From contig CAMJMP010000001.1 of NCBI GenBank assembly GCA_946407055.1, forward strand, positions 6,847 through 70,846: DNA of 64,000 bases, given 5' to 3'. Source of the DNA: an uncultured Mycoplasmatota bacterium (GTDB taxonomy: Bacteria > Bacillota_I > Bacilli_A > RF39 > UBA660). Both the position numbers and the translations under genes were made by a program. The notes below the pieces were generated by a model. It did not search any database, was not told the origin of the DNA, and worked only from the letters and a program-made list of their open reading frames with translations. Below are positions 2,149 through 56,660 of this stretch, piece after piece. Numbering within the stretch: position 1 is the stretch's first letter; the number at the start of each line of letters is the position of its first letter.

Positions 2149-3245
2149 TTAGTAATTCCTTATTAACACAAATCACAAACGGTAGAGATGGTTCGAATTG
2201 GGGATATACTATGGGATTACCAAAACTTGAAAATATTGTAGATGGTGTATGTAAACAAACATATACACTATTATTTGCAGGTTCAGGTTGTGGTAAATCA
2301 AATCTCATGATGTATGCTTATATTTATAGACCATTAATGGAACATATTGACGATGATGATTTCTTTGTTTATTTATTTTCATTAGAGATGAAAGCAGAAA
2401 TCATTCTTGCTAAACTTCTTTGTATTTACATATTTGAAAAGTATCACATTGAAATTTCTTTTAAAGAATTACTTTCTAAAAAGAGAAATTATAGACTTCC
2501 AGACGAATATTATAAAATAGTTTTAGAGTGTATGCCTTGGTTGAAAAAGGTAGAATCTAAACTTAAAATATTCGATAAAGGAGCTAATGCTGATACAATT
2601 TATGCTAAACTTAAAGAAGATTTAGAAGAAAAGGGTAAATTTGAAGAGCAAGGAACTCGTAAAATATATTATCCGAACAATCCAAATTTAACTTATTTGG
2701 TTGTTGTTGATCATATGGGATTACTTCGTACTAAAGCAGGAAGAACTAAAAAGCAAGAAATTGATTTATTATCAAATTACTTTGTTTATCTTCGTAATAC
2801 TTGTGGAATTAGTCCGCTTGCTATTATGCAATCTAATAGAGATCAATCTTCATCTGCAAGAAGACAATTAGGTATGTATTTGCCTCAAATGTCTGATGTT
2901 AAGGAAACTAATGTTCCGTATGAGGATTCTGATATTACATTAGCAATTTATAATCCTAATGTTGATAAATTGAAAACTCATAATAAATACGATATAGTAC
3001 AATTTGGCGATACATTTAGAAGTATTGTATGTATTAAAAATAGATATGGTGAATCTAATGTAGAAGACAGTTGTGCTTTCTATGGCAAATCTAATATCTG
3101 GGTAGAATTACCTAAACCAGAAGAAATATTTGACGTAGAAAAATATAAAACTCCAGATTGGCTTTGGAAAAAGCAAGAAATGCCAGATAATAATAGTGTT
3201 TTAGATGAGAATACAAATAATAAATCATTTAAATTTAACTTATAA
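2145..3245 (+). CDS. DnaB-like replicative helicase (RecA-fold C-terminal domain)
   Basis: Walker A 'AGSGCGKS', Walker B-like 'VVVDHMGLL', a 'QSNR' motif (like the DnaB H3 'QLNR') and 'PQMSDVKETN' (like DnaB H4 'PMLSDLRESG'). At 366 aa it lacks the DnaB N-terminal domain. Confidence 0.6.
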   Translation: MISNSLLTQITNGRDGSNWGYTMGLPKLENIVDGVCKQTYTLLFAGSGCGKSNLMMYAYIYRPLMEHIDDDDFFVYLFSLEMKAEIILAKLLCIYIFEKYHIEISFKELLSKKRNYRLPDEYYKIVLECMPWLKKVESKLKIFDKGANADTIYAKLKEDLEEKGKFEEQGTRKIYYPNNPNLTYLVVVDHMGLLRTKAGRTKKQEIDLLSNYFVYLRNTCGISPLAIMQSNRDQSSSARRQLGMYLPQMSDVKETNVPYEDSDITLAIYNPNVDKLKTHNKYDIVQFGDTFRSIVCIKNRYGESNVEDSCAFYGKSNIWVELPKPEEIFDVEKYKTPDWLWKKQEMPDNNSVLDENTNNKSFKFNL

Positions 3246-3247
3246 AT

Positions 3248-3724
3248 ATGGCAGAATTAATTGCAGTTGTAGGAGAAAGTGGCTCTGGTAAGACCACTAG
3301 TATTAGAAATCTTAATCCAGAAGAAACTTTTATAATATCAACTACTGGAAAACGTCCTGGAACAAAAGGAGCAAAGAAGAAATATCCTACATTTAAAATC
3401 GATCCTACAACAAAGGAGATTTCAGGTAATTTCTTCACAGCATCTAATGTTGATTATATTGGAAAGATGCTTAAATTAATCGACTCTAAACTTCCACACA
3501 TAAAGACTGTTATTATTGATGATTATCAGTATGTAATGGGCTTTGAAGCTATGGATAGAGCTGGTGATAAAGGATATGATAAGTTTACTCAAATGGCTCA
3601 ACATGCTTATCAAGTTATTAAGGATTCTATGAATCTTCGTGATGATTTGTATGTTGTTATTCTTACTCATAGTGAGAATACAGGTGATAAACTTAATCCT
3701 TATTATAAGATTAAGACTCAAGGT
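3248..3724 (+). CDS. Sak4-like / AAA_24 family recombination ATPase, exon 1 (the ORF runs to a stop at 3728-3730; the proposed 5' splice site is after 3724)
   Basis: N-terminal Walker A 'VGESGSGKTT' and Walker B-like 'VIIDDYQY'. At 160 aa the ORF is about 70 aa short of a full AAA_24 protein and ends just before the intron-like region. Confidence 0.55.
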
Positions 3725-4925
3725 AAATAATATTTTGCCAGTATAACCCCTAATTCGGCGAAATCTGAAGCACAAATCGTGAGATTAATTGTATGACAAT
3801 GCCGAGCCAAGCAAAAATAGAATTCTAGACTATTTTGGGCGCGTGTATCGACTAGTAGCGGATCGGCTACGTAGAAATTGAAGTAATTAATCAATTTTGA
3901 AATGGGGATGTAAATTTTATATATTTTAATTTGAGGTGTAAATTTTTTATATTATATTTGTTGTAATAAAATTATAATAATTATGAATATAAAAATTTAT
4001 ACTTTAAGTTCTACAAGAAATCCTGATAATATCAGGTATGTAGGTAAATCTAAACAAAAATTAACTAGAAGACTTTCGCAACATTTATTAGATGCTAAAC
4101 GTCATAAAATGAATAAAGATTTTAAAAACCATAATTATAATTGGATAAATAAAGAATTAGAAGATGGTTTTAAAATAATTATTCTTGAATTAGATTCAAT
4201 GGAATTTTCAGAAAATGAAGATTGGAAATGGTTAGAACAATATTGGATTTCTCAATTAAGAATTTGGGGATTTAATTTAACTAATCTTACAGATGGTGGT
4301 GATGGAAATCAAAACCAAAAATTTTCTAAAGAATCTATTGAAAAAAGAGCTTCTAAATTAAGAGGTAAACATCGTGATGAAATAACAAAAGAAAAAATTT
4401 CTAAAGGACTTCAAGGAATAAAACGTTCTGAAGAAACAAAACAGAAATTAAAAAATTCAATACGAAGTTTACAAGGAAAAAAGATTAAACAATTTGATAA
4501 AAAAGGTAATTTTATAAAAATTTGGGATTGTGCAGTAGATGCAGCTAATGAATTAAATATAGATAGAGCTAATATTAGTCATTGTTGTAATCATAAACCA
4601 AATCATAAAACAGCAGGTGGATTTATTTGGAGATTTGAAAATGATAACTTTGAAATAAATACATATACTGATAATAGTATAGTTCAATTAGATTTAAATA
4701 ATAATTTAATTGAAATTTTTAAAACTGCTGTTTTGGCAAGTACTAAAACAGGAATTAGTACTTGTAGTATATCAAATTGTTGTAATCATAAAATAAATGA
4801 TGTAAAAGGGTTTAAATTTATTAAATATAAAGAATTTATGAATACATAGTCAGTTCCCGTAGAAATACGGTAGGCATAAATTTGATAGTAATTATATCAA
4901 ATAAAAAATTTATGTAATTTTAACG
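3725..4925 (+). mobile_element. Group I intron (about 1.2 kb) carrying a GIY-YIG homing endonuclease ORF; boundaries inferred
   Basis: Structured GC-richer core elements 'AATTCGGCGAAATCTG', 'GCCGAGCCAAGC' and 'TAGACTA...GGGCGCG'. The exon ends in U at 3724, the intron ends in G at 4925, and splicing restores the frame: ...KIKTQG|KMIDNVITLEG. Confidence 0.55.
3983..4849 (+). CDS. GIY-YIG homing endonuclease (intron-encoded)
   Basis: 'KIYTL...RYVGKS...R...E...N' GIY-YIG core, NUMOD3-like K/R-rich repeats, and two 'SxCCNHK...GF.W' C-terminal DNA-binding modules. Confidence 0.85.
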   Translation: MNIKIYTLSSTRNPDNIRYVGKSKQKLTRRLSQHLLDAKRHKMNKDFKNHNYNWINKELEDGFKIIILELDSMEFSENEDWKWLEQYWISQLRIWGFNLTNLTDGGDGNQNQKFSKESIEKRASKLRGKHRDEITKEKISKGLQGIKRSEETKQKLKNSIRSLQGKKIKQFDKKGNFIKIWDCAVDAANELNIDRANISHCCNHKPNHKTAGGFIWRFENDNFEINTYTDNSIVQLDLNNNLIEIFKTAVLASTKTGISTCSISNCCNHKINDVKGFKFIKYKEFMNT

Positions 4926-5147
4926 AAAATGATTGATAACGTTATTACTCTTGAAGGTCTGTTTACATATGTTTTCTTTACTGAAGTAACACGTGATGAC
5001 GACGGTAATCCTAAATATATGTTTAAGACTAACTCAGATGGAACTTGTACAGCTAAGTCCCCAATGGGAATGTTTGAAGATCTACTTATTGATAATGATT
5101 TACAGAAAGTAATTTCAAGAATAGAGGAGTATGACAATGAAGATTAA
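4926..5147 (+). CDS. Sak4-like / AAA_24 ATPase, exon 2
   Basis: The frame opens at 4905 and no sensible independent start is needed. The translation 'ITLEGLFTYVFFTEV...' supplies the missing C-terminal part of exon 1. Confidence 0.5.
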   Translation, partial: KMIDNVITLEGLFTYVFFTEVTRDDDGNPKYMFKTNSDGTCTAKSPMGMFEDLLIDNDLQKVISRIEEYDNED

Positions 5148-5157
5148 TCTTATAAAA

Positions 5158-5745
5158 ATGGAAGTTTATTTCGATCCTGAGACCGACAGTTTTATGGCTG
5201 TCGATCCTGAAACAGGAGAATGTAGAGATCTAACAATCTCTAAAAAGAAATCTGCTACTAAGAAGAAAGAGTCAGCAGTTTCTGAGGATACTACAGCAAG
5301 GTTAATTCTAGAAACAAATAAATATACCATTACAACAGGAGCTGCCGAATTACTTGGTGTGTCACCTGATGATCGTATAGAAATTAAGTACGAGAAACAA
5401 GGTAATGTATTTGTTCCTATAATTGGATCTAACACTACATTTGGTACAAAAGCAGGAAATAAACTTTCTAAAAGTTTAACTGTTAGTTGTAGAGGTAAAG
5501 CAAATGAAGAATTGTCTCAATACGGTGATCAATTTACATTTGAACCTCATCCTTCTAAGTCAGGTTTATTTATCTTAGTTGGTAATAAACCTCGTCCTTC
5601 TGCTGTACCAGAGGTAAAGAGTGAAGTTGTAGAAATAGATGATGAAGATGAAGAGGAGGTTGACGAAGCATTAGTTGATCTACTCGACGAATCAAGTAAA
5701 GAAGATGAAAAAACTGAAGTTTTTAATTTTGAATTAACAATTTAA
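5158..5745 (+). CDS. Hypothetical protein with a highly acidic C-terminus
   Basis: ORF with an ATG at 5158 just after the upstream stop; acidic tail 'EIDDEDEEEVDE'. Confidence 0.4.
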   Translation: MEVYFDPETDSFMAVDPETGECRDLTISKKKSATKKKESAVSEDTTARLILETNKYTITTGAAELLGVSPDDRIEIKYEKQGNVFVPIIGSNTTFGTKAGNKLSKSLTVSCRGKANEELSQYGDQFTFEPHPSKSGLFILVGNKPRPSAVPEVKSEVVEIDDEDEEEVDEALVDLLDESSKEDEKTEVFNFELTI

Positions 5746-5755
5746 TTTTTGAAAA

Positions 5756-6451
5756 ATGAGTAACGGATTTAATTTTGGTGGTTTTGAAACAGTTAAGCCA
5801 ACAGCAGTTGGTGGTCCTCGTCCTTGGAATATCTATGAGAATGTAAAGTTTGGTGGAATTAGCGACGTTATTAAAGGTAAACGTCAAGACGGTTCTGAGT
5901 GGAGAGCTTGGGATTTCGTTTTCGAGTTCAAGGAGGGTAAGTATACCGAACGTTTCTTTGAACCTACTAATAACGATCGTAAATCATATAAGGATAAGAA
6001 CGGCGTAGAGCGTTGGATTCCATCTAATCATGAATCTAATCTTGTGTTTATTGCACAGGTTATTGCAGCATTTACATCAACAGGACTTGACATTCTTAAG
6101 AAGAATGGAAGTAAGATTGATAGTTATGACACACTTATTGGTCTCGTAAAGAAGATTCTTAACGAGAAGACTGATAAGTCTCCAAAGCTTAAGCTTGTTG
6201 GAAAGAACAATGATGGTAAGATTTTCTGTGGTCTTCCTGTTTATTGTAGAATCAGTAAGGACGGAAATCCTTATACTTCTGACACTTTCATTGGTGACGC
6301 TGTAGCTTTCTCTAATTATGAACTTGATGAGAAGAAGAAGTATGAAACAGCTGCTCCAACAAAGATGGCTGACACAGAAGCACCTTCAGATAGCAAATCT
6401 GATAAGGGATCAGAAAATGTAATTGATGATTTCGCAGGTCTGATGGATTAA
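5756..6451 (+). CDS. Putative single-stranded DNA-binding protein (highly expressed)
   Basis: GC-richer codon usage with optimal codons, an acidic C-terminal tail '...VIDDFAGLMD' typical of SSBs, a position next to primase and helicase genes, and a strong terminator downstream. Confidence 0.35.
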   Translation: MSNGFNFGGFETVKPTAVGGPRPWNIYENVKFGGISDVIKGKRQDGSEWRAWDFVFEFKEGKYTERFFEPTNNDRKSYKDKNGVERWIPSNHESNLVFIAQVIAAFTSTGLDILKKNGSKIDSYDTLIGLVKKILNEKTDKSPKLKLVGKNNDGKIFCGLPVYCRISKDGNPYTSDTFIGDAVAFSNYELDEKKKYETAAPTKMADTEAPSDSKSDKGSENVIDDFAGLMD

Positions 6452-6536: not shown

Positions 6537-7547
6537 ATGAAATTAAATTTTGAATTTGAACAAGAAATAACTAAAGAATTTCTTTTATCTAAGTTTAGCG
6601 AAGAAACTTATATGACACATTATTTGGGTATTCCTGTTAAAAAAGGATTATTCAGATCTCCTTTGAGGGGAGATAAAACTCCTACTTGTTCATTCTTTAG
6701 AAATAAATCTGGAGAACTTATCTTTAAGGATTTTAGTGGTGCTTTCTATGGTAATTTCGTTAATGTTGTAATGACTAAATACGAATGTAGTTATCATAAA
6801 GCATTAAAAATCATAGCTTCTGATTTTGGTTTAATTAAAACTTCTGTTAAAAAAGAAGAAATTAAAATCAAAGAAGTGCCTAAATTTGTAGATTCTGGAC
6901 AAGCAATTATCAATGTAGAAATACAAGATTTTACTGATACAGAACTCAAATGGTGGAAAAAATATGGAATAGACGAAAAAATACTTAAAAAGTTTAAAGT
7001 TTATTCTTGTAAAAACGTATGGTTAAATGGAAATAGGTTCGCGAGTTCATCAAGAACCAATATGATATTTGGCTATTACGGAAACATTAAAGATAAGGTT
7101 GAACTTTGGAGAATTTATTTCCCAAAACGAAAAGAATACAGGTTTCTAAGTAACTGGAACGCAAATAAAATTCAAGGTTTTGACCAACTTCCCAAAACAG
7201 GAAATACTCTTGTCATTACTAAATCTATGAAAGATGTAATGACATTATATTCTATAGGAATAACAGCAATTGCTCCTAATTCGGAAAATTTATTTATAAC
7301 TGATTCAGTATTAGAAAAACTTAAAGAACGTTTTACAAATATATACGTTCTTTATGATAATGACTTACCTGGAATTAGTAATATGAATAAAATTAAAAAG
7401 AAACATCCCGAATTAAAATATATTTGGATTCCAAGAGAATCTGGAGCAAAAGACATATCAGATCTTCGCAAATTATTAGGTAAAGAGAAATTCATAAGTT
7501 ATTTAAAAGAAAAATTATTATGGCTAAAAAGTAGGTGGTTGAATTAA
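6537..7547 (+). CDS. DnaG-type DNA primase (zinc-binding domain plus Toprim domain)
   Basis: Zn-ribbon-like 'GDKTPTCSFF...GAFYG' and Toprim motifs 'VITKSMKDV...' and 'YVLYDNDLPG'. Confidence 0.7.
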   Translation: MKLNFEFEQEITKEFLLSKFSEETYMTHYLGIPVKKGLFRSPLRGDKTPTCSFFRNKSGELIFKDFSGAFYGNFVNVVMTKYECSYHKALKIIASDFGLIKTSVKKEEIKIKEVPKFVDSGQAIINVEIQDFTDTELKWWKKYGIDEKILKKFKVYSCKNVWLNGNRFASSSRTNMIFGYYGNIKDKVELWRIYFPKRKEYRFLSNWNANKIQGFDQLPKTGNTLVITKSMKDVMTLYSIGITAIAPNSENLFITDSVLEKLKERFTNIYVLYDNDLPGISNMNKIKKKHPELKYIWIPRESGAKDISDLRKLLGKEKFISYLKEKLLWLKSRWLN

Positions 7548-8071
7548 ACACAGCTTGTAAAGCGATATTCAAAGACGGTCATACAGAAGAATTTAGTTCT
7601 GTAGAAGAAGCATCTGAAAAGACAGGTATTACCGTCAATTCTATAAAGATAAGAGCAAATCGAAAAGGTGCAGGTGGTAAAGATAAAACACAGTTTGAAT
7701 GGTTAGATGAACATACAAGAAGACATTATCAAGCTAAAAAGTCTAAGAACAAAGGTAGTACCTTTGAGTCTGAAATTGTTCATAAACTTCAAGATATAGG
7801 TTATCCAGGTTGTATAAGAGCAGCTGGAGAATCTAGGTCTACTGATAATAATAAGATTGATATTATAGACATGGAAGATGAACTTCCTGTAAATATTCAG
7901 TGTAAATATACAATGAATACTCCATCTTATTTTAGAATATCAGAAGAATGTTCAGATAAATCTAAACCATTTTGTCTTTTATGGAAAAAAGCTCCAGAAC
8001 CAGGAAGTATAAGTAAAGGTGCTGTTGCTATAATTCCACTTGACTATTTTTACGAATTAATTAAGAAATGA
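7535..8071 (+). CDS. Hypothetical protein with a possible N-terminal HTH motif (GTG start)
   Basis: ORF with a GTG start; the HTH-like stretch is 'SVEEASEKTGITVNSI'. Confidence 0.3.
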   Translation: MVELNTACKAIFKDGHTEEFSSVEEASEKTGITVNSIKIRANRKGAGGKDKTQFEWLDEHTRRHYQAKKSKNKGSTFESEIVHKLQDIGYPGCIRAAGESRSTDNNKIDIIDMEDELPVNIQCKYTMNTPSYFRISEECSDKSKPFCLLWKKAPEPGSISKGAVAIIPLDYFYELIKK

Positions 8072-8530: not shown

Positions 8531-9032
8531 ACTACGAATAGGATTAGATATTGATGATACTATCGCTGGATTTTCACAAGGATATATTGAAAGATTTGGA
8601 AAGTTTCCAAAAGTTGATTGGGCAATTACAAGAAATGTAAATAATATTCTTATTAAAGAACGTGAGTTCTGGTTAGGATTGCCTCTTTTAAGAAAACCCG
8701 ATTTTGAGCCAAGACTTTATTGTAGTTGTAGAATTAACAATAAACGATGGACAAAACAATATCTCAATGATAGAGGTTTGCCTAAAAGCCCATTATATCA
8801 AATTCCTGGTTATCACTTAAGTAAGGCTGAAACAATTCGTGGAAAAGTTGATGTATTCATTGATGATTCCGTTAGAATTTTTGAAGACTTAAATAAGAAA
8901 GGAATCCCCTGTCTTTTAATTGATTCTGTTCAAAATAAGAATTATGAAACACCTTATCGCATATATTCTTTAAAGTATGCAGAAATTGAAGGTGTTTATA
9001 ATAAATTATTAACTGATAAGAATTTAGAATGA
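8523..9032 (+). CDS. HAD-superfamily 5'(3')-deoxyribonucleotidase-like hydrolase
   Basis: N-terminal 'IGLDIDDTIAGF' DxD HAD motif I, a size of 169 aa, and a later 'FIDD' acidic motif. Confidence 0.45.
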   Translation: MNKLRIGLDIDDTIAGFSQGYIERFGKFPKVDWAITRNVNNILIKEREFWLGLPLLRKPDFEPRLYCSCRINNKRWTKQYLNDRGLPKSPLYQIPGYHLSKAETIRGKVDVFIDDSVRIFEDLNKKGIPCLLIDSVQNKNYETPYRIYSLKYAEIEGVYNKLLTDKNLE

Positions 9033-10090
9033 ATTTAAACGATATTAAAATAACCCCATTACTTGATACTCTTCGTCTGCAAAAAATTTCGGACGAAGAG
9101 TATTTTAGTGAGGTATATAAAGACTATATAAGTAATTCAAGGCTTGGCTTTATAGATCCTACAAATGGAGGTTCCCCACAAAAATTCTTGGATGGATTTG
9201 CATCTAATAGAATATTTAGTGACAGTTTAACTTTGGGAACAGTTGTTCATGAACAAATTCTTCAACCTGATTTATTTGATATTTGTCCAGATTTAGACAG
9301 ACCTACTGCGAAAGTAGGTTTTGTAGCAGACGAAATTGCTAAGATTACAAAATCGGATGATGTATCAAATTTTACAAAAGAAGAATTTTTACAAGCCTGT
9401 TTAACTGTGGATTATTATAAAGGTAATCCGACAAATGAAAAACGCAAAGAAATACTTCCTAAAATTAAGAATTATCTAATAAAGTTGAATCAATTCTTAC
9501 AATATGATGATAGAAAGGTATCTACTTTCTTGGATTCAAAAACGTTAGATAAAGCTAAAAATTGTATTTCTGCTTTACAAAATAATAAAAAAGTCCAAGA
9601 GTTACTTCATCCTAAAGGATTACTTGAAGATCCGATTTCTGAATGTGAGCAAGCTATTTTACTTGATGTTAGGGTAGAAGCTGAAGGACTTGAACCTTTT
9701 ACAGTAAGATTAAAATCTAAAATTGATAATTATACTATTGATAAAGAATCAAATCTAATTACTGTAAATGATGTTAAAACAATTGGAAGAACACTCGACA
9801 ATTGCGATGACCAAATTATGAAATATCATTACTATAGAGAAATGTATATGTATTGTTACTTACTTTCTTTATGTGCTAAGAAGTTTTATAATTTAGAAAA
9901 ATGTAGTGTTAAAAGTAATTTCTTATGGGTTTCAACTATTCCAAATTATTATACAAAAGTAACTCCTATGACAAGAGAGTTATTTAAAATTGGAGCAAAG
10001 GAATTCAAAGATTTACTAAGAAGAGCTGCTATTACTTTATTTTATAAAGATGCTATAAAGGCAGAAACTTTCATAAATAGTGGTTTATGA
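9029..10090 (+). CDS. PD-(D/E)xK exonuclease (RecB/YqaJ/Cas4-like nuclease motifs)
   Basis: 'GTVVHE', 'KIDNYTID', 'VNDVKT' (DxK) and 'QIMKY' (QxxxY), in the order seen in RecB-family nucleases. Confidence 0.45.
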   Translation: MNLNDIKITPLLDTLRLQKISDEEYFSEVYKDYISNSRLGFIDPTNGGSPQKFLDGFASNRIFSDSLTLGTVVHEQILQPDLFDICPDLDRPTAKVGFVADEIAKITKSDDVSNFTKEEFLQACLTVDYYKGNPTNEKRKEILPKIKNYLIKLNQFLQYDDRKVSTFLDSKTLDKAKNCISALQNNKKVQELLHPKGLLEDPISECEQAILLDVRVEAEGLEPFTVRLKSKIDNYTIDKESNLITVNDVKTIGRTLDNCDDQIMKYHYYREMYMYCYLLSLCAKKFYNLEKCSVKSNFLWVSTIPNYYTKVTPMTRELFKIGAKEFKDLLRRAAITLFYKDAIKAETFINSGL

Positions 10091-24697: not shown

Positions 24698-24933
24698 GTG
24701 ATAATGTAAATCATCCTTCACATTATGCATCTGGTAGTATTGAATGTATTGATGCTATGATTGCTGCATATGGTTTAAAAGCAGTAATGGATTTTTGTAA
24801 ATGTAATGCTTTTAAATATCAATGGAGATTTGAAAATAAAAACGGAGAAGAAGATCTCAAGAAAGCTCAATGGTATCAAAATAAATATATTGAACTTAAA
24901 CATATTGAACTTAAAGAAACTGCGTTGAAATGA
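24694..24933 (+). CDS. Hypothetical small cysteine-containing protein
   Basis: 79-aa ORF. Confidence 0.35.
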   Translation: MSDNVNHPSHYASGSIECIDAMIAAYGLKAVMDFCKCNAFKYQWRFENKNGEEDLKKAQWYQNKYIELKHIELKETALK

Positions 24934-25897
24934 TATTAGAAGTATACGATTTAGAATGTTTAGCTAATGTTTTTACGTATACAGGTTATGCTCCAAAAAC
25001 TAAAGAATGGTTTCAATTTGTAATTTGTAATTGGCGAAATGACTATGATAAATTAATTGAGCATTTAAAAAGAGACAAACTTATTATGGTAGGATTTAAT
25101 AACGAGAGTTATGATTATCCATTATTACATCATGTGATTAAACATTATGACGAATACAAAAAATTAAGTGGAAATATTGTTGCTCAAAAATTATATAATA
25201 AATCTCAAGAAATAATAAATCAACAATTCAGTGCAATTGCTGATAAGAATAAATTTATTCCTCAAATTGATTTGTTTAGAATATGGCATTATAATAATGC
25301 TGCACGTTCTACCTCATTGAAGGATCTTGAGATTTGTATGAGAATGGAAAATGTGGAAGAAATGCCTATACACCATACTCATTGGTGTAAACCAGGTGAC
25401 GAAATATGTATTTTGGATTACAATAAAAACGATGTTTGGGCAACTTATTTATTTTTAAATGTAACTTTAGGTCGAACTGATTATTCAATCTATAAAGGAA
25501 AGAATAAAATTGAACTTAGAGAGAAAATTAATAAAAAATTCAATGTTAATGTTATAAACATGGGTGACGTTCCTATGGGAGAGGAATTAATGCTTACTTT
25601 GTATTCAAGAAAAGTAGGTATTCCAAAGTACGTTATCAAACAACGTGGAGGAACTCACCGTTCTACAATAAACTTAAAAGATTGTATTCCATATTGGTGT
25701 AAAATTGAATCTCCAGAGTTTAAAAACTTTTTAAATCAAATTCAAAATAAAACAATTAGAGGAGTTAAAGGAGAATTTCAATATTCTGTAATATTCCATA
25801 ATTATAAATTTGATTTTGGTCTTGGAGGAAGTCATGGATGTTGTGAACCTAAAGTATGGGAATCCAATAAAGATTGGGTAATTGTAGACTATGATGT
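24930..25897 (+). CDS. Family B DNA polymerase, exon 1 (N-terminal and 3'-5' exonuclease domain; 3' boundary approximate)
   Basis: Exo I 'YDLECL', Exo II 'FNNESYDYPLL' and Exo III 'YNKNDVWATY'. The ORF stops at 25919 with no polymerase domain. Confidence 0.6.
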
Positions 25898-26251
25898 TGG
25901 ATTAAAGTGGTCCAACTAAAATGGAAATAAATTGCGGGGAGTCCCTTAGAGACTTAATCACGGCACTAAATAGTAATATATTAGGTAGCAGTAAAGTTAA
26001 CGCTTTACGGATCGTAAAAGCATTAAGTATTGGGTAATCACATCAAAACGCAGCCAAGCTTCCAATTTTTGGAAGAAGGTTCAACGACTATCCTTTTTAG
26101 GAGTAGGGTACAACTGATAACTGTATCCGAAAAATTTCCAAAATTATTTGGATATAACCTTAATTTTAAAAGGTAAATTCGCAAATAATTTGTGATATAG
26201 TCTGAACTAATAGGGAAAACCTATTGACTTATATACAATCATTTATCTTAG
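25898..26251 (+). mobile_element. ORF-less group I intron in the DNA polymerase gene (boundaries approximate)
   Basis: 'AAATTGCGGGGAGTCCC' (compare Tetrahymena 'AAAUUGCGGGAAAGGGGUC'), 'ACGCAGCCAAGC', 'GTTCAACGACTATCC', and 'GATATAGTCTGAAC' followed by a P9-like hairpin. No ORF is present. Confidence 0.6.
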
Positions 26252-27224
26252 TATATATAACACAATTACACTATATCCTAGTATAAGTAAATCTCTTAAA
26301 TTATATCCTGAACATCTTGGTCCTGTATTCAATGAACAATATATAGGGTTTATTGATACTAGATTAAATGAAAAACATAAAGCAAAAGAATTAAGGGATA
26401 ATGTTCTTATTGAAGGATATAAACTTATTCTTAATGGAACATACGGTAAAAGTAAGGAAGAAACTTCTTTCTTATACGATCCATTGTATACATTTAAAAC
26501 AACAGTAGCAGGTCAATTATTTATTTGTATGTGGGCTGAACGTTGGGTTAAAGTTTGTCCACGATTAAAGTTCATACAAACAAATACTGATGGTCAAACT
26601 ATTTATATTCCTCGTGAAGATATAGATAAGATACGTGCTGTAAACGAACAACTTACAGCAGAAACAGGTCTTACTATTGAAGAAGTTGTCTATAAAAAGA
26701 TGATAGTGCGTGATGTGAATAATTACATCGGCGTTTATGAGGATAATGAAAAAGACCACGAACACATTAAGCTAAAAGGTGATTATGAAGTTGATAAAGA
26801 ATTCCATAAAGACCCTTCTATGCGTATTGTGCCTTTTGCTGTTAAAAACTATTTTGTATATGGAATTCCTGTAGAAGAAACCATTAAAAATCATAAAAAT
26901 ATATTTGATTTCTGTCTAAGATTAAAAACTAATGCAAAAAGTACTCCTTATTTTAGACATCTTAACGAAAATTCTGAAATCGTAAATGATAAACTTGATA
27001 GAACAACTCGTTATTATGTTTCTAATAGAGGTGGAAACTTGTATAAAGATTTTGGAGATAGACAAACTGGTGTAAACGTAGGATTTTCAGTTACAATTTT
27101 TAATCAATATGTTGAAAAACCTTTCGAGGAATACGACATTGATTATAGATTTTATATTGTTGAAGCTAAAAAATTAATAACTTCAATAGAAACAAAACAA
27201 TTAACTTTATTCGATTTATTTTAA
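26252..27224 (+). CDS. Family B DNA polymerase, exon 2 (palm and thumb; 5' boundary approximate)
   Basis: The frame is open from 26214 with no start codon until a TTG at 26484. It encodes motif A-like 'TLYPSI', motif B 'KLILNGTYGK' and motif C-like 'TNTDGQ'. Confidence 0.55.
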
Positions 27225-51813: not shown

Positions 51814-51863
51814 AAGGGCGACTTGATTGGATAAACTCCAGTCAGGTCGCCCTTATTTTTTTA
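51814..51863. terminator. Terminator shared by both strands, between the convergent + and minus gene blocks
   Basis: AAGGGCGAC...GTCGCCCTT stem followed by ATTTTTTT; also the 3' end of the minus-strand gene 51861-56660. Confidence 0.6.
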
Positions 51864-54800
51864 CTCTTGTGAATTAACTTTAAGTGTATGGAATACAGGT
51901 TTAAATTGGTTGAATAAGGCATTTGATTTACCAATTGTGGTATAAATGCTTTGATCTCCGAATATTGTTTCGTGAACATTACTATATTGTTTTCCTAAAT
52001 ATTCGAAAGCAAACGGTGTCCAACTAACAGCTGGATCTCCAATAGTATCTATAAAGTTAAAATCTAAGAATGAATTTTTAACAGATTTAATTGCTATATT
52101 ATATGCTGATAATTTAAGTGCATCACCCATATCGGTTTCACTTGAATTTTTCTTTTCATCATCATAAGCTCCTGCTAATGCTGCAGCTATGATGTTTCCA
52201 ACAAGCATAAACATTATTAAATCATAACCTAATTGTTTCATATTAGAACGATATGCAGTACGTAAATTTAAATCTTCATTATACCACATATTTCTCCATC
52301 CATCTGAGATTCCATCGTTTTTCATACTACCTAATAAAGTATATATAGTAGAAACAATTCCTTCTTTCCAATTACCTTCCCAACGAACAACTTGTTCAGT
52401 TGAAGCATTTTCATCTCCTTCTTTTACAGGAGGTTCATTAAATAATATGTTGCCTTCTGCATCTTTTTGATAATAATATTTTATAGTATTACCACTTTCA
52501 TCTTTTTCAGTATAAGGAACCCAACGTCCTTCAAGTTTTACACCACCATGTGCAAGATATTGATTCTTTTTACCAGACCAGAATGTTTTAAACTGCATGA
52601 ATAATGAACCCCAAAGTGTTGATTGAATCATAGATTTCTTTTCATGTGAATAATAACCATAAAGTGTATCACCTAAAGATTTCATTGATTCTGACTCTAA
52701 GTTTGTATAAGCACGAGGTAGTTTTGTTTTCTCTGATAAATCAAATTTAAACTTACTACCATCTGGATTTAAAGCATTTTCTTTTTCAAATTGTCTTGCA
52801 GCTGCAATGTAAAGCATTTTAGCTTTTTCATATTCAGCTGGGTTAGATCTATCATCATCAAAAAATGCTTTATATCTCTTATCTAAAGCACAATCATATT
52901 CAAGTACTCCTTTACTATTAATTTTATGTGCTTCATAAGAACCTTCATTAATCATCTTAGCAACAAAGATTGTCATTCTGTTATAATAGTCTGGACGTGA
53001 TGCAAATTTAAATAAGAAGTTATTGAAATTAAATATACCGTTTTGGTCAGTCTTTATTTTATCAATATATGTATTCATATCCATATCATTGACACCATAA
53101 AGTCTATTAAACTCTTCAATTATTGTTGGTTTATCTGTATAGGCTTGTGGATTAGTTAATTCTCCATAAACTATTTTAGCTGCCTCTAACATATTAGATA
53201 ATGTAAAAGCATCAGTTCCATCTGGCTTACGGATTATTAATGATATGTCTTGCCATATACCTTGTATTGTCTGATAAATTGCTTGAACAGGAGATAAGCC
53301 AAGAACTAATTTAGATGCTGCTTGTTTGATTTTATTTAAAAATGCAACAGCAGGTCTATACTTTTCTGGAATAATTGATTCATTTTTAATCTTATTTTTA
53401 ACATAATTTTCAAGATATTCAAGGTCGTTTTTGAAACCTTCCTCTACATTTTGATTAAAACCTTGAACTGTAAGATTAATCATAGATGCTTTAATCATAG
53501 GGAACACTTCATTTACACGATTTTTCATATCATATGCAAAAGTATGTTTTAAGAAAAGTGTTTCAAGATTAAGTTCATATCTTTTACGAGCTAATATCTT
53601 ATCACGAAGTTTTCCTTCTCCGTAATCAAAATAATTAGTCATTTCAAATAAAGACTCAGAACTTTTATATTCTTGTTGTAATTTATCATCAAAAATTCCT
53701 TCAACAGATGCTTTTGCTCTTCTCCAAGCCTCTTTTGGTAACCAACCTTTAAGTCTATCTTTAAATGCTGCAAGAAGTCCATCTTTTGCAGAAATTACAG
53801 AAGTGTCTCCTTCACAAAGAGGTATTCTATAATATTTAGGATTATTCTTTTCGTATCCTCTATTTTCATTTATTATAGGAAGAACATATTGTAAAAATTC
53901 TTTTTCTTCTGGTAATAAACTATCATCTGTATCAGGATCTTTAAAATACACTTCTCCATCTTTATCAAATTCATACATATTAATGTATAAAGATGCTTGA
54001 TTACCTGTTGTATTTTCTTTAAGCCATCCAAAGTTTTTACGTTTTTTTAATTTTTCTACTAATTCGCGCATTTTAGCAGCAGGTTCTTGTATATCAGCGC
54101 GTACGTTTTGATAAGCTTCTGTTACTAATTTTGTTACAGAATTAAGTGTTTCAGATGATAAGTTACCAGGGTTATCAATCATATTACCACTAAGTCCTTC
54201 TTTATGAACCATTAATGATTGACACCAGTTTTCATGGTCATGTAATTGTTGTTTAAAGTTAATACCTTTAAGTTCAGCAATAGCAAGTAAACATTGATTG
54301 TATAATGCTACATGATCTTTAGATAATTGGTCTTGATTAGTAGTATAATTCTTTAAGATTTTACCTTTATCGGTTGTTTCAAGTTTTTTAATAATATCTT
54401 GAAGTGCTGATATTTTTTCATCTATAGAAGCATTACTTTCTATAGCAGTATCTAAAGCACTTTGACAACTCTTAAAATCTTTAAATTTAGAATATTCTTC
54501 TAACTCAGTTTTAACCATTATATCAGAAAGCATTGTTTTAGCTAATTGAACTTTAGCTGCCATTTTAATTTCTCCAGATTTGAAATTATTTCCTATAGAA
54601 ATTTTGCCTTCTGTACCACTTACTGTTTCTAATTCATTAAATGTATCAAATAGTTCTTTATTAGAACCAGCTTGAATACCTACACCTAATTGAGGATCGG
54701 CAACAAATACGTCACCTACACAAGCATTTTCTTTATCAATTAATTTATTTAACTGATTAATTGCAAGCATTGCTTCAATAAGTTCTATATTACCATATGT

Positions 54801-56660
54801 TGCTTGCATCATCATAGAGTCTGGATTTGATTTAAAATACAAATCTGATTTAAAACAACCACCTAATGTAGTTCTTCCGTTGCCAAAATTAAATTGTCGT
54901 TTTAAGTTTTGTGTAGATATTTTTACAAAATTATATTGTCTATTTCTTGCATTAAATAATGTTATAATACCTAATGCTTCAAGTGGCTTAAATGCTTCGC
55001 CTTCACAAACTTGCCAATTTTTATTAGCGTATCTATCCATTATACGAGCAAACCAGTCTTGACCAATATTATCAGTAAATTCAATACCTTCTACTGTTTC
55101 ATGTTCAATAGCAGTTTTAAGATGTCTTTTAATATTTTGTGTTAATTTATCACGAAATTTAGGTCTATCTTTTAACCACTTTTCTACTTTTTTAACAAGT
55201 TCATCTTCAGCATTAGGAAGTGAAGCATCGACTTTTATTTCTTCTGCATTTTTCTTTCTTGCTCCTTTCGGAACGAATACTAAATTACCTGCTTCATCTG
55301 GTTCAAATGCGTTAGCTTCCTCACATAATTTTTTAGCATCCTCATAACTATACGTTTTAAATTGTGAATAATTCTTGAACCATTTACCCATAGTATCTTG
55401 AACGTTTTGTAAGAAATCATCTGTTGATAATTCAGGTTGATATTGATAATCAATTACTTCATTAAGTTTTGTTTCAATATTATCGTCCAAAATTCTATTA
55501 GTAATATCTTCAAATACATTGTTTCTTAAATTAAATCCTGTAAATGTATATTTATCATCATCTTCATATTGAAAGTCAGCAATTTGTATAGGAACAATTA
55601 AATATTTTGTTTTATTAATATTTATTCCAGCTTTTGCAAGAAGACGTCCATATACAGCTGTTTGATAAGTATATGCTAATTTCTTAGCAGAATTGAAGTG
55701 ATCGTAATCGTGAATAGATGTTTTATAATCTACAATTTGAGGATTTCCTTCTTTGTCAATAACAAGTAAGTCAATGATACCCATTACTGTATCAACACCA
55801 TTTGCAACATTAGTATCTATTTTACCTGTTATTTTAAACTCAGGGTAAAAAAGACAATCATCTCCAAATTTATTAATAACAGCTTGTTCAATTTCTTTAC
55901 ACTTATTAAGTGCTTGTATAAACTGAGCATCTGTCATTAAATCATTAAATTTAATTGAACTTCCGTCTTTTCTTTTATATGTTAATGAAGATAATTTATT
56001 TCTAAATTCATTTAAAACATTAGGATCATTTTTAAGAGCGTCTTTCATGTAAACAATATTATCATCAGTAGATGATTCATGTTTACTAAAATATAATTCA
56101 AGAACAGAGTGAGTAGCATCACCAATTAATGCTTGATGTTCCCATTTGTTTTCTATTAAACCTCTTAAACGATCTTGTTGATGGGTATCTGAAACTTTAG
56201 GCATATTATTAACATCCCAACCTTCAACTTGTGAGAATAATTCTTTTTCAGCATCATTAAATTCACCTTTTGCCCAATCACCAAATCTTCCTTTAGTTCT
56301 ATCGTTTGTTCCCCAATAATTATCAGGTATAAATTCAGGGAAAAGAAGTTCATCATCTTCAGTTTTAAATCCAGATAAGAATCTATTTACACCAATATAA
56401 GGTGCTCGGAAATTATAAGAGTCTCTTTCGTCTCCAATGAATCTATTATTACGAGCATAATCCCATTCAGCTTCTAATTTCTCAGATTTTTCAGATTCTT
56501 TTTGTAATATATCTAAAACAACTGCTTGATGTGTATTAATCTGGAATACTATATCACCAAGAGATTTTCTTAAATAATTCTTTGCTAATAAAAAATCATC
56601 TAATTCAATTTCAGAATTAAATTGATGTCCGTCTAATAAATATACACAATTCATGAACAA
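51861..56660 (-). CDS. Giant protein (1599 aa) with an embedded RecB-family PD-(D/E)xK nuclease motif
   Basis: 'MGIIDLLVID...QIVDYKTS...YQTAVY' (hhhD / DYKT / QxxxY) at about aa 290-345, which is about 55625-55780; the rest is unassigned. Confidence 0.5.
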   Translation of the reverse strand: MFMNCVYLLDGHQFNSEIELDDFLLAKNYLRKSLGDIVFQINTHQAVVLDILQKESEKSEKLEAEWDYARNNRFIGDERDSYNFRAPYIGVNRFLSGFKTEDDELLFPEFIPDNYWGTNDRTKGRFGDWAKGEFNDAEKELFSQVEGWDVNNMPKVSDTHQQDRLRGLIENKWEHQALIGDATHSVLELYFSKHESSTDDNIVYMKDALKNDPNVLNEFRNKLSSLTYKRKDGSSIKFNDLMTDAQFIQALNKCKEIEQAVINKFGDDCLFYPEFKITGKIDTNVANGVDTVMGIIDLLVIDKEGNPQIVDYKTSIHDYDHFNSAKKLAYTYQTAVYGRLLAKAGININKTKYLIVPIQIADFQYEDDDKYTFTGFNLRNNVFEDITNRILDDNIETKLNEVIDYQYQPELSTDDFLQNVQDTMGKWFKNYSQFKTYSYEDAKKLCEEANAFEPDEAGNLVFVPKGARKKNAEEIKVDASLPNAEDELVKKVEKWLKDRPKFRDKLTQNIKRHLKTAIEHETVEGIEFTDNIGQDWFARIMDRYANKNWQVCEGEAFKPLEALGIITLFNARNRQYNFVKISTQNLKRQFNFGNGRTTLGGCFKSDLYFKSNPDSMMMQATYGNIELIEAMLAINQLNKLIDKENACVGDVFVADPQLGVGIQAGSNKELFDTFNELETVSGTEGKISIGNNFKSGEIKMAAKVQLAKTMLSDIMVKTELEEYSKFKDFKSCQSALDTAIESNASIDEKISALQDIIKKLETTDKGKILKNYTTNQDQLSKDHVALYNQCLLAIAELKGINFKQQLHDHENWCQSLMVHKEGLSGNMIDNPGNLSSETLNSVTKLVTEAYQNVRADIQEPAAKMRELVEKLKKRKNFGWLKENTTGNQASLYINMYEFDKDGEVYFKDPDTDDSLLPEEKEFLQYVLPIINENRGYEKNNPKYYRIPLCEGDTSVISAKDGLLAAFKDRLKGWLPKEAWRRAKASVEGIFDDKLQQEYKSSESLFEMTNYFDYGEGKLRDKILARKRYELNLETLFLKHTFAYDMKNRVNEVFPMIKASMINLTVQGFNQNVEEGFKNDLEYLENYVKNKIKNESIIPEKYRPAVAFLNKIKQAASKLVLGLSPVQAIYQTIQGIWQDISLIIRKPDGTDAFTLSNMLEAAKIVYGELTNPQAYTDKPTIIEEFNRLYGVNDMDMNTYIDKIKTDQNGIFNFNNFLFKFASRPDYYNRMTIFVAKMINEGSYEAHKINSKGVLEYDCALDKRYKAFFDDDRSNPAEYEKAKMLYIAAARQFEKENALNPDGSKFKFDLSEKTKLPRAYTNLESESMKSLGDTLYGYYSHEKKSMIQSTLWGSLFMQFKTFWSGKKNQYLAHGGVKLEGRWVPYTEKDESGNTIKYYYQKDAEGNILFNEPPVKEGDENASTEQVVRWEGNWKEGIVSTIYTLLGSMKNDGISDGWRNMWYNEDLNLRTAYRSNMKQLGYDLIMFMLVGNIIAAALAGAYDDEKKNSSETDMGDALKLSAYNIAIKSVKNSFLDFNFIDTIGDPAVSWTPFAFEYLGKQYSNVHETIFGDQSIYTTIGKSNALFNQFKPVFHTLKVNSQE

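Follow-up and report, generated by a model that had tools for sequence, protein, structure and literature searches.

Group I introns that encode GIY-YIG endonucleases and lie in phage genes of DNA metabolism are textbook elements, and a RecA-family recombination gene, recA of Bacillus anthracis, is also interrupted by a group I intron. Here we analyse an element of this kind in a 64,000-nucleotide stretch of contig CAMJMP010000001.1, hereafter the window, whose positions are used throughout. Comparison with related sequences makes it very likely that positions 3725-4925 are a splicing-competent, mobile group I intron inserted in the Sak4-like gene of a crAss-like gut phage. The first-pass annotation of the locus had already proposed a group I intron with a GIY-YIG endonuclease splitting a Sak4/AAA_24-like gene, and this proposal is borne out by colinear homologs, a full-length joined product and a covarying RNA structure. 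The intron is an ordinary example of a known mobile element in an intron-rich group of phages, and is well supported as such.

Among the described systems, the td intron of phage T4 with its endonuclease I-TevI (group IA2) likewise splits a DNA-metabolism gene, has P7.1/P7.2-type elements and a modular GIY-YIG enzyme, carries an in-frame stop shortly after its 5' splice site, and differs in its presence among close phages. It interrupts a different host gene, and the I-TevI open reading frame (ORF) is looped out of P6, whereas the window ORF lies in the P8 loop and overlaps the 3' strand of P8, J8/7 and the 3' strand of P7, in an intron that has no P2. The recA intron of B. anthracis lies in a bacterial chromosomal gene, of another protein family and at another insertion site. 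As for the host gene, the Sak4 of HK620 (hkaL) is a RecA-core protein that anneals single-stranded DNA (ssDNA) and is stimulated by its cognate ssDNA-binding protein (SSB). It has the same PHROG and Walker A motif as the spliced product of the window, a putative annealing protein, but unlike the window gene it is uninterrupted.

Introns have already been reported from crAss-like phages, probably including the gene family of the window: their density of group I introns is high, a genome of the Zeta group (145-192 kb) having as many as 14, and they concern the same phage assemblage and the same replication-block genes as in the window (Yutin et al. 2021, Nat Commun, PMC7886860). In the part of that paper devoted to introns, these are flagged through the protein domains of their endonucleases only, without the RNA structure, splice sites and comparative analysis given here (PMC7886860). 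The crAss ATPase whose gene adjoins that of the replicative helicase shares ~30% identity with the spliced product, and in cr106_1 and DAC15 its annotation is Sak4-like; judging from position and family, the ATP_43b of Yutin et al. very probably represents the gene family of the window. Our literature search on Sak4 and group I introns returned no paper linking Sak4 by name to a group I intron.

The interrupted Sak4-like gene and its relatives

The three ORFs listed by the first-pass annotation are present, and are given here with the exons and intron that we propose (lengths in nucleotides, nt, or amino acids, aa).

3248-3730, plus strand: first ORF, 160 aa, with the P-loop GESGSGKT (Walker A)
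3248-3724, plus strand: exon 1 of the Sak4-like gene, 159 codons ending in ACT CAA GGT; colinear with residues 1-159 of uninterrupted homologs
3725-4925, plus strand: predicted group I intron, IA-like, 1201 nt, beginning with AAAUAA and ending with UUAACG; boundaries common to all variants
3983-4849, plus strand: middle ORF, homing endonuclease gene in the P8 loop, 288 aa, GIY-YIG and two NUMOD1; stop TAG at 4847-4849
4929-5147, plus strand: ORF 3' of the endonuclease gene, 72 aa
4926-5147, plus strand: exon 2 of the Sak4-like gene, 73 codons and stop; AAA ATG ATT GAT, translated as KMIDNVITLEG

Base 3724 is a T and base 4925 a G, and the reading frame is continuous again once 3724 is linked to 4926 (KIKTQG/KMIDNVITLEG, where the slash marks the junction), so the exon-end U, the intron-end G and the continuous frame on which the splice boundaries had been placed are all confirmed. 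The AAA repeat permits four registers with an identical protein; only 3724/3725 with 4925/4926 has both a U at position -1 and a terminal G, and the other registers were set aside. The predicted spliced junction reads CAAGGT/AAAATGATT, or in its other notation AAGACTCAAGGT/AAAATGATTGATAAC, and the insertion point falls between the codons of Gly159 and Lys160.

The joined exons (3248-3724 and 4926-5147) encode a 232-aa protein. The first ORF alone matches AAA_24 over positions 5-150 of 195 (29.3 bits, Pfam), compared with positions 5-193 for the joined product (39.2 bits). Residues 1-230 of the latter match the 'Sak4-like ssDNA annealing protein' phrog_2872 over 1-212 of 219 (E = 7.6e-59). Full coverage of AAA_24 and phrog_2872 is reached by the spliced product only, so that the alignment to AAA_24/Sak4 proteins suggested as a check runs from end to end; across residues 1-228 it is also 41% identical to hkaL of HK620, annotated as Sak4-like. 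These matches support the assignment of the host gene to the Sak4-like (AAA_24, RecA-related) ssDNA-annealing ATPases.

Uninterrupted homologs are numerous. In a tblastn search of 50,697 phage records, 172 match at least 80% of the spliced protein in one unbroken piece, and ~75 of the best 80 IMG/VR loci are uninterrupted as well, including one (L003) at 90% identity whose junction DNA, AAGACTCAAGGTAAAATGATTGAT, is the sequence predicted for the window exons after ligation. The closest phage record, MT836666.1, encodes an uninterrupted homolog of 231 aa and has the gene order of the window: a DnaB-like helicase, the homolog, a conserved ORF of ~200 aa and a homolog of ORF 5756. Its KTVGKLLSEKVTLEG aligns without gaps with KTQGK/MIDNVITLEG, and exon 2 is colinear with the C-terminal third of the uninterrupted proteins. 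Two complete separate genes in the homologs had been named as the outcome that would speak against an intron; instead, the homologs run through the junction, which favours one. Two arguments of the first-pass annotation fare less well. The downstream frame does have an in-frame ATG, at 4929, which is the conserved Met161 codon (K-M-I-D or K-M-L-D in all homologs), so the absence of a start codon cannot serve as an argument. The GC-richer flanks ascribed to the endonuclease gene are found on its 5' side (40% GC at 3750-3899) but not on its 3' side (24% at 4850-4949), the exons having ~30% and the endonuclease gene 17-29%.

The same insertion occurs in other genomes. Four IMG/VR loci match the protein only to residue 160 and have an insertion at exactly the same codon; scanning for the conserved core revealed further cases in viral and metagenome contigs, for a total of at least 10 distinct exon contexts in other contigs with the insertion at the identical codon. 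The scan of genome contigs for the core gave no match, so the host cannot be deduced from it. In all complete cases the insertion lies between the Gly and Lys codons of K-T-x-G/K-M, the sequence starts with GGT/AAA(U)AA, and a terminal G directly precedes AAAATG. The inserts fall in length classes. Those of 1146-1201 nt have an endonuclease ORF of 288-291 aa, the one of 961 nt (L091) has a shorter GIY-YIG ORF, and those of 387 nt (L083 and L095) retain the last 21 ORF codons only, the rest being deleted. The shortest, of 292 nt (L087, L088, L098) and 278 nt (L089), have no ORF and exact boundaries. In these ORF-less forms, the 3' strand of P3 is directly followed by a short hairpin and then by AUGAAUACAUAGUC, a segment kept with and without the ORF; this layout places the window ORF in the P8 loop. 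Intron-bearing exon contexts have GGT/AAA in 10 of 10 distinct cases. The 48 distinct empty sites use GGT, GGA or GGC, followed by AAA, AAG or CGT, and only 12 of them have GGT/AAA (p = 1.2e-5 in a Fisher test that does not correct for phylogeny). Strict GGT/AAA is the pattern expected from a U at -1 and from P10 pairing. Given its recurrence at an identical codon in other contigs and the covariation of the RNA structure, the arrangement is far beyond chance.

RNA structure of the predicted intron

We folded the insert by hand and then with programs, the latter on an unguided MAFFT alignment of 11 distinct variants with the P8-loop inserts masked, and placed the following elements.

3722-3739, plus strand: P1; GGUAAA (3722-3727) pairs with UUUGCC (3734-3739), with a U3724·G3737 wobble at the 5' splice site
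3728-3730, plus strand: in-frame TAA stop in the P1 loop, one codon past the 5' splice site
3733-3736, plus strand: possible P10, UUU(U) with the AAA(A) at the start of exon 2, read from the sequence
3742-3750, plus strand: P3 5' strand, UAUAACCCC, paired with 3904-3912
3755-3760 with 3800-3805, plus strand: P4, invariant
3764-3765 with 3795-3796, plus strand: P5; a pair is UA in six variants and CG in five (compensatory)
3775-3786, plus strand: P5a hairpin, AAUC-GUGA-GAUU, GNRA-capped, read from the sequences
3806-3808 with 3838-3840, plus strand: P6
3814-3820 with 3830-3836, plus strand: P6a hairpin; five pairs with compensatory changes in the P6/P6a region
3850-3854, plus strand: P7 5' strand, GACUA, paired with UAGUC at 4847-4851; invariant in 11 of 11 variants
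3855-3870, plus strand: P7.1 hairpin, GUAGC-GGAUCG-GCUAC; four of five pairs with compensatory changes
3874-3898, plus strand: P7.2 hairpin (3875-3881 with 3891-3897); six of seven pairs with compensatory changes
3884-3889, plus strand: UAAUUA of the P7.2 loop, within AGUAAUUAA; proposed kissing contact with the P9.1a loop
3904-3912, plus strand: P3 3' strand, GGGGAUGUA
3912-3926, plus strand: P8 5' strand, AAAUUUUAUAUAUUU, paired with 4823-4837 across the endonuclease ORF
4823-4837, plus strand: P8 3' strand
4838-4846, plus strand: J8/7, AUGAAUACA
4847-4851, plus strand: P7 3' strand, UAGUC; aligned to the S element of RF00028 in the ORF-less L087
4857-4870, plus strand: P9 hairpin, CCGUA-GAAA-UACGG; four of five pairs with compensatory changes
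4875-4882 with 4907-4914, plus strand: P9.1
4883-4887 with 4895-4899, plus strand: P9.1a; loop GUAAUUA, holding UAAUUA (4889-4894)
4925, plus strand: terminal (omega) G at the 3' splice site; G before AAAATG in every complete variant

The core helices P3-P4-P5-P6-P7-P8-P9 follow one another as is canonical for group I introns; the P3/P7 pseudoknot is present, as are the elements P, Q, R and S. The extra hairpins P7.1 and P7.2 between P7 and the 3' strand of P3 are a trait of subgroup IA. P2 is absent. The Rfam model of group I introns, RF00028 (Intron_gpI), aligns with P1, P3-P9 and P, Q, R and S of the Sak4 intron (AAUUCGGCGAAA, AAUGCCGAGCCAA, CGACUA, AUAGUC), but the model is without the P7.1 and P7.2 that the window intron has. 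The P and Q elements correspond to the P4-P5 region (3755-3805), and the strands of P7 match the R and S consensus, GACUA and UAGUC. The pair G3850-C4851 occupies the position of the guanosine-binding pair of group I introns and would have that role here. Run on the 5' part of the window intron alone, the model matches 3715-3936 (18.4 bits, E = 0.012), aligning P1 and the P, Q and R elements; for the ORF-less L087 the match extends over the full length of the model (1-253), with 43.8 bits (E = 4.7e-10).

RNAalifold recovered P1, P3, P4, P5, P6/P6a, P7.1, P7.2, P9 and P9.1 from the alignment, but neither P7, which does not vary, nor P8, which is poorly aligned. Once P7 is included, 98.8% of the cells pair, compared with 33-42% when the partners are slid by one to three columns. 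Compensatory changes on both sides occur in 24 pairs, against 10.7 ± 1.9 in shuffled alignments (0 of 500 reaching this number) and at most 7 in the slid ones, and the covariation score is 0.279 versus at most 0.047. These changes are located in P5, P6a, P7.1, P7.2, P9 and P9.1. P7.1 and P7.2 together have them in 10 of 12 pairs, the stem of P7.1 being GUAGC with GCUAC, GUUGC with GCAAC, GUUCC with GGAAC, or UCUUC with GAAGA. The variable segments folded singly give the same P7.1, P7.2 and P9 hairpins from differing sequences, and the stem of P6a, wholly different in sequence among variants, folds at the same offset in most of them.

P1 is an invariant helix of 6 bp, with the U·G wobble in 11 of 11 variants, and is recovered by both RNAalifold and the Rfam alignment. 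Its loop holds the stop codon: GGT AAA TAA is found in all complete variants, and in L094 the stop comes two codons after the 5' splice site (GGT AAT TGA). The 8 pairs of P3 (columns 28-36 with 197-209 of the RNAalifold alignment) are 95-100% paired. In P8, 10-12 of the 12 outer pairs form where the variant contains the ORF, and 7-8 of 8 where it does not; L085 has C-G where others have U·G, and L091 has an entirely different pair of strands. The GAAA loop of P9 is present in all variants, whereas P9.1 is absent in L085 and L091, both of which also have short P7.2 loops.

The loops of P7.2 (L7.2) and P9.1a (L9.1a) are complementary. In the window, UAAUUA faces UAAUUA; in L096, UAAUCAA faces UUGAUUA; and in L084, UUAAUCGA faces UUGAUUAA. 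The C-containing L7.2 loops of L096 and L084 form 7-8 bp with their own partner and 4-5 bp with the UAAUUA class. We defined these loops by hand, because automatic extraction gave inconsistent boundaries. Such a loop-loop contact would tie together the RNA on both sides of the ORF; the specificity is seen in one direction, and the independent changes number two at most, which makes for modest support.

The endonuclease, intron mobility and alternative explanations

The middle ORF has the layout of an N-terminal GIY-YIG catalytic domain followed by C-terminal DNA-binding modules. In Pfam it matches GIY-YIG (PF01541, 23.5 bits for a cutoff of 22.6) and two copies of NUMOD1 (41.7 bits), in NCBIfam it matches TIGR01453, 'group I intron endonuclease' (58.3 bits for a cutoff of 56.05, positions 4-204 of 215), and in PHROGs the homing endonuclease family phrog_314; searches of PDB sequences gave no match. 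It thus belongs to the family of GIY-YIG intron endonucleases, and the motifs IY (residues 5-6), YVG (19-21), R29/R30, E85 and N98 can be read by eye in the translation. The ORF is intact, with 288-291 aa, in six sequence variants, at a ratio of nonsynonymous to synonymous polymorphism (pN/pS) of 0.32-0.50. In others it has decayed or been lost: in L090 and L093 the start codon has changed from ATG to ATA in sequences otherwise near-identical to L086, and in L083 and L095 most of the ORF is deleted although the ribozyme core is 98.5-99% identical to that of the window. A weak candidate for a -7 promoter box (TATATTTG, 3953-3960, plus strand) lies 22 nt upstream of the endonuclease ATG. It resembles the Bacteroidota-type consensus TAnnTTTG, and such boxes (TATATTTG, TATCTTTG) occur 20-26 nt upstream of the endonuclease start in the window, L084 and L091; we did not rely on it, as it is found in only these three ORF-bearing variants.

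The last 9 codons of the endonuclease (KYKEFMNT and the stop, 27 nt) are also the 3' strand of P8, J8/7 and the start of the 3' strand of P7. These nucleotides are constrained by the function of the RNA, because they are conserved in ORF-less introns too. Through this shared segment, endonuclease translation and folding of the core should compete and exclude each other.

Established group I chemistry suggests how the element would work. In the primary transcript, the GGU at the end of exon 1 would pair with the internal guide GCC to form P1, with the U3724·G3737 wobble; an external guanosine bound in P7 would attack at 3724/3725, and the freed exon 1 would then attack after the terminal G4925, exon 2 being held by P10 (AAA with UUU). 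Ligation of the exons would produce the mRNA of the 232-aa protein. Unspliced RNA would be translated only to the TAA at 3728-3730, which would keep ribosomes off the ribozyme, while the endonuclease gene would be looped out of P8. The targets of the enzyme would be alleles that lack the intron in co-infecting phages, with cleavage near AAGACTCAAGGT/AAAATGATTGAT, and recombinational repair would copy the intron in (homing) along with some of the flanking exon sequence.

The relatives fit this scheme. Exon 2 has a ratio of nonsynonymous to synonymous substitution rates (dN/dS) of ~0.08-0.09 between intron-bearing genomes, a figure taken from gapless pairs only since pairs with indels give unreliable values, and this indicates from sequence that the function of the host gene is maintained. 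The window and L083 share 80-81% identity in their exons and differ at 57% of the synonymous sites of exon 2, whereas the intron core is 98.5-99% identical; in the 40-nt bins adjoining the junction, exon identity climbs to 90-93%. This discordance between intron and exon identity, together with the polymorphism of intron presence among close relatives, points to a recent horizontal transfer in which homing was accompanied by co-conversion. To judge from their sequences, the relatives display the stages of an intron's life cycle: empty site, intact endonuclease, loss of the start codon, ORF remnant and ORF-less mini-intron.

Several observations count against a splicing-competent intron or temper the evidence for it. 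Splicing is predicted here from the comparison of sequences, and the in-frame ATG of exon 2 means that, on sequence alone, the C-terminal piece may be translated separately. P1, P3, P4 and P7 are invariant and so show no covariation, which is confined to peripheral helices and one pair of P5; because they never vary, the support for these four helices comes from conservation and from the agreement with the Rfam model. As the variants are related to one another, the cell counts overstate the number of independent events. The minimum free energy fold of the 292-nt mini-intron is unremarkable (z = -0.82 relative to shuffles), in a test that is weak given the P3/P7 pseudoknot and the low GC content. 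The whole window does not match RF00028 at the gathering threshold of 50 bits, a permissive Rfam scan of 3600-5050 with the ORF included gave no group I match, and the best ORF-less relative, L087, also stays under the curated cutoff at its 43.8 bits. Hence the group I model search that had been suggested as a check gave a sub-threshold match on the 5' part and a significant one on an ORF-less relative, but left the curated cutoff unreached. The shortfall is explained by the 867-nt ORF in L8, which breaks the match, and by a model that misaligns P3 for want of P7.1 and P7.2; the gathering threshold is itself a curated cutoff and no biological feature.

Among the alternatives, the one that retains some weight, while being improbable, is that the intron is a genuine group I intron that needs a protein helper in vivo, be it an RNA chaperone of the host or phage or its own endonuclease acting as a maturase. 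Dependence on proteins is common among the group I introns of organelles and occurs in some of those of phages, and the AU-rich core, the short P4-P6 helices and the unremarkable thermodynamic folding would fit such a dependence. However, genes under purifying selection still carry ORF-less versions at this site, so the endonuclease cannot be an obligatory maturase, and the peripheral elements that usually stabilise self-splicing introns of phages are conserved (P7.1/P7.2, the GAAA loop of P9, and possibly the L7.2-L9.1 kiss). We give very little credit to a free-standing endonuclease gene between two separately translated halves of Sak4, whose 160-aa and 72-aa products would assemble without any splicing. 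Phages commonly have free-standing GIY-YIG genes, the frame of exon 1 ends at a stop of its own (3728-3730) and exon 2 has an in-frame ATG (4929), but the latter is simply the Met161 codon of uninterrupted homologs. Such an arrangement would leave unexplained the conserved and covarying non-coding RNA that flanks the ORF (~260 nt plus 75 nt), the ORF-less inserts of 278-292 nt with identical boundaries, the RF00028 match at E = 4.7e-10, and the strict GGT/AAA and terminal G of all variants.

An equally slight chance attaches to a decayed intron that no longer splices, which would make the Sak4 gene of the window phage a pseudogene. Homing elements often degenerate, and the relatives that lost the endonuclease start codon or most of the ORF illustrate such decay. 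In the window, though, all the helices are intact and the endonuclease ORF has its full length, the core shares 98.5-99% identity with its counterpart in L083, which lies in a diverged genome, and exon 2 is under strong purifying selection (dN/dS ~0.09). An intein or a group II intron in place of a group I intron has a negligible probability. Inteins do occur in crAss-like phages (PMC7886860), and group II introns are reported from phages (PMC12350094). An intein was rejected as there is no in-frame protein insertion (stop at 3728-3730, separate ORF) and the Pfam search found no Hint domain; a group II intron was rejected because the ORF is a GIY-YIG one and there is no reverse transcriptase/maturase ORF, no Rfam group II match, and a group I structure. 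A splicing-competent, mobile group I intron remains by far the preferred interpretation of 3725-4925. We hold a broader proposal much more tentatively, as possible but rather unlikely: the intron would represent a distinct IA-like lineage, systematically missed by the group I model of Rfam, that occurs among the phages of gut Bacteroidota, in crAss-like ones and, as a cousin, in Lak megaphages. In it, the antagonism between endonuclease translation and splicing would serve as a switch, toward either expression of the host gene or spread of the intron, and the L7.2-L9.1 clamp would join the two halves of the RNA.

Other candidate introns, genomic context and implications

The DNA polymerase gene of the window (24930-27224) also appears to be split, with a gap at ~25900-26270. 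The ORF at 24930-25919 ends in VIVDYDVG (then LKWSN and a stop), and the frame of the ORF at 26484-27224 is open from 26214 and encodes TLYPSI, such that the break adjoins the LYPS motif. The fragments, once joined, are matched in one piece by 839 phage records. The gap of ~370 nt contains no ORF of at least 50 aa and has no nhmmer match to the Sak4 intron, and shows a sub-threshold match to RF00028 (25937-26226, 21.3 bits, E = 0.0045) in which Q, R and S align well. Its sequence makes it probable that the window has here a second group I intron, without an ORF and from another lineage.

Two other contigs carry group I-like elements. In the Prevotella phage Lak-B1 (MK250020.1), a cousin of the Sak4 intron lies at ~2440-3700 in a different host gene. 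Its P4-P5 region is ~81% identical to the Sak4-intron family, with a P4 of UCGGU with ACCGA versus UCGGC with GCCGA; a GIY-YIG-like ORF interrupted by standard stop codons follows P6, P9-like (GAAA hairpin) and P7'-like motifs are present, and the part at 2400-2900 has no match in Rfam. An unrelated short contig (Ga0182017_10161250, 1.4 kb) contains two tandem group I-like cores, the first with the P4/Q signature common to the Sak4 introns, a P2 hairpin and another exon context (LMG/K).

The first-pass annotation had also placed the Sak4-like gene in a recombination module with an SSB and an exonuclease. The exonuclease stands, and the SSB is weakly supported, with other genes interspersed.

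5131-5745: ORF of 204 aa with an acidic C-terminal region
5756-6451: ORF 5756, 231 aa, with the acidic tail DDFAGLMD
7535-8071: ORF with a RusA-like resolvase match restricted to residues 66-177
9029-10090: exonuclease VIII-like, PD-(D/E)XK-type nuclease (phrog_412, E = 1.6e-19)
51861-56660, minus strand: giant ORF, 1599 aa
57835-60843, minus strand: giant ORF, 1002 aa

ORF 5756 has no match in Pfam, PHROG, NCBIfam or PDB sequences, and has 162 metagenomic relatives. Its AlphaFold model (mean predicted local distance difference test, pLDDT, of 91.6) shows a barrel like the oligonucleotide/oligosaccharide-binding (OB) fold with a helical insert, and best matches the DNA-bound PrgE of pCF10 (Foldseek E = 8.6e-3, probability 0.99), followed weakly by the OB folds of RPA and SSB and, among viral models, by DUF669 proteins and a few annotated SSBs. 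The model thus makes an SSB, perhaps of a divergent family of crAss-like phages, plausible but weakly supported. The ORF at 5131-5745, between the Sak4-like gene and ORF 5756, is found at the same position in relatives (3690-4265 in MT836666.1, and L091) and has no match in Pfam, PHROGs or NCBIfam. In the ORF at 7535-8071, the ~65 N-terminal residues (SVEEASEKTGITVNSIKIRANRK) have by eye a putative resemblance to NUMOD1/helix-turn-helix modules, as in homing endonucleases.

The surrounding genes encode a helicase, a DnaB-like helicase, a primase, the RusA-like resolvase and the exonuclease VIII-like nuclease, with NrdD, a DNA ligase, the DNA polymerase and RtcB further along the window. They form a general crAss-like block of replication and recombination, and no dedicated three-gene module. 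The window primase is ~35% identical to primases of crAss-like phages, related contigs are 160-190 kb long, and the 64 kb of the window contain no tRNA genes. The two giant ORFs have no PHROG match, and the only matches of the larger one, at 21-36% identity, are unannotated fragments of human-gut phages; an assignment of the window phage to the Zeta crAss group was therefore not retained.

The window intron leaves the knowledge of how group I introns work unchanged, and its interest lies in the phages that carry it. When it goes unrecognised, annotation yields a truncated 160-aa ATPase, an endonuclease and an orphan 72-aa ORF, and the phage seems to be without an intact Sak4-type recombinase. 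The curated Rfam threshold misses the window intron, its ORF-less relatives and the candidate polymerase intron, so standard pipelines probably underestimate how many introns gut phages carry, crAss-like ones among them. The natural series of forms, and the discordance between intron and exon identity, are useful for studying the dynamics of homing in uncultured gut phages. Finally, the product of the interrupted recombination gene could itself take part in the repair that spreads the intron.

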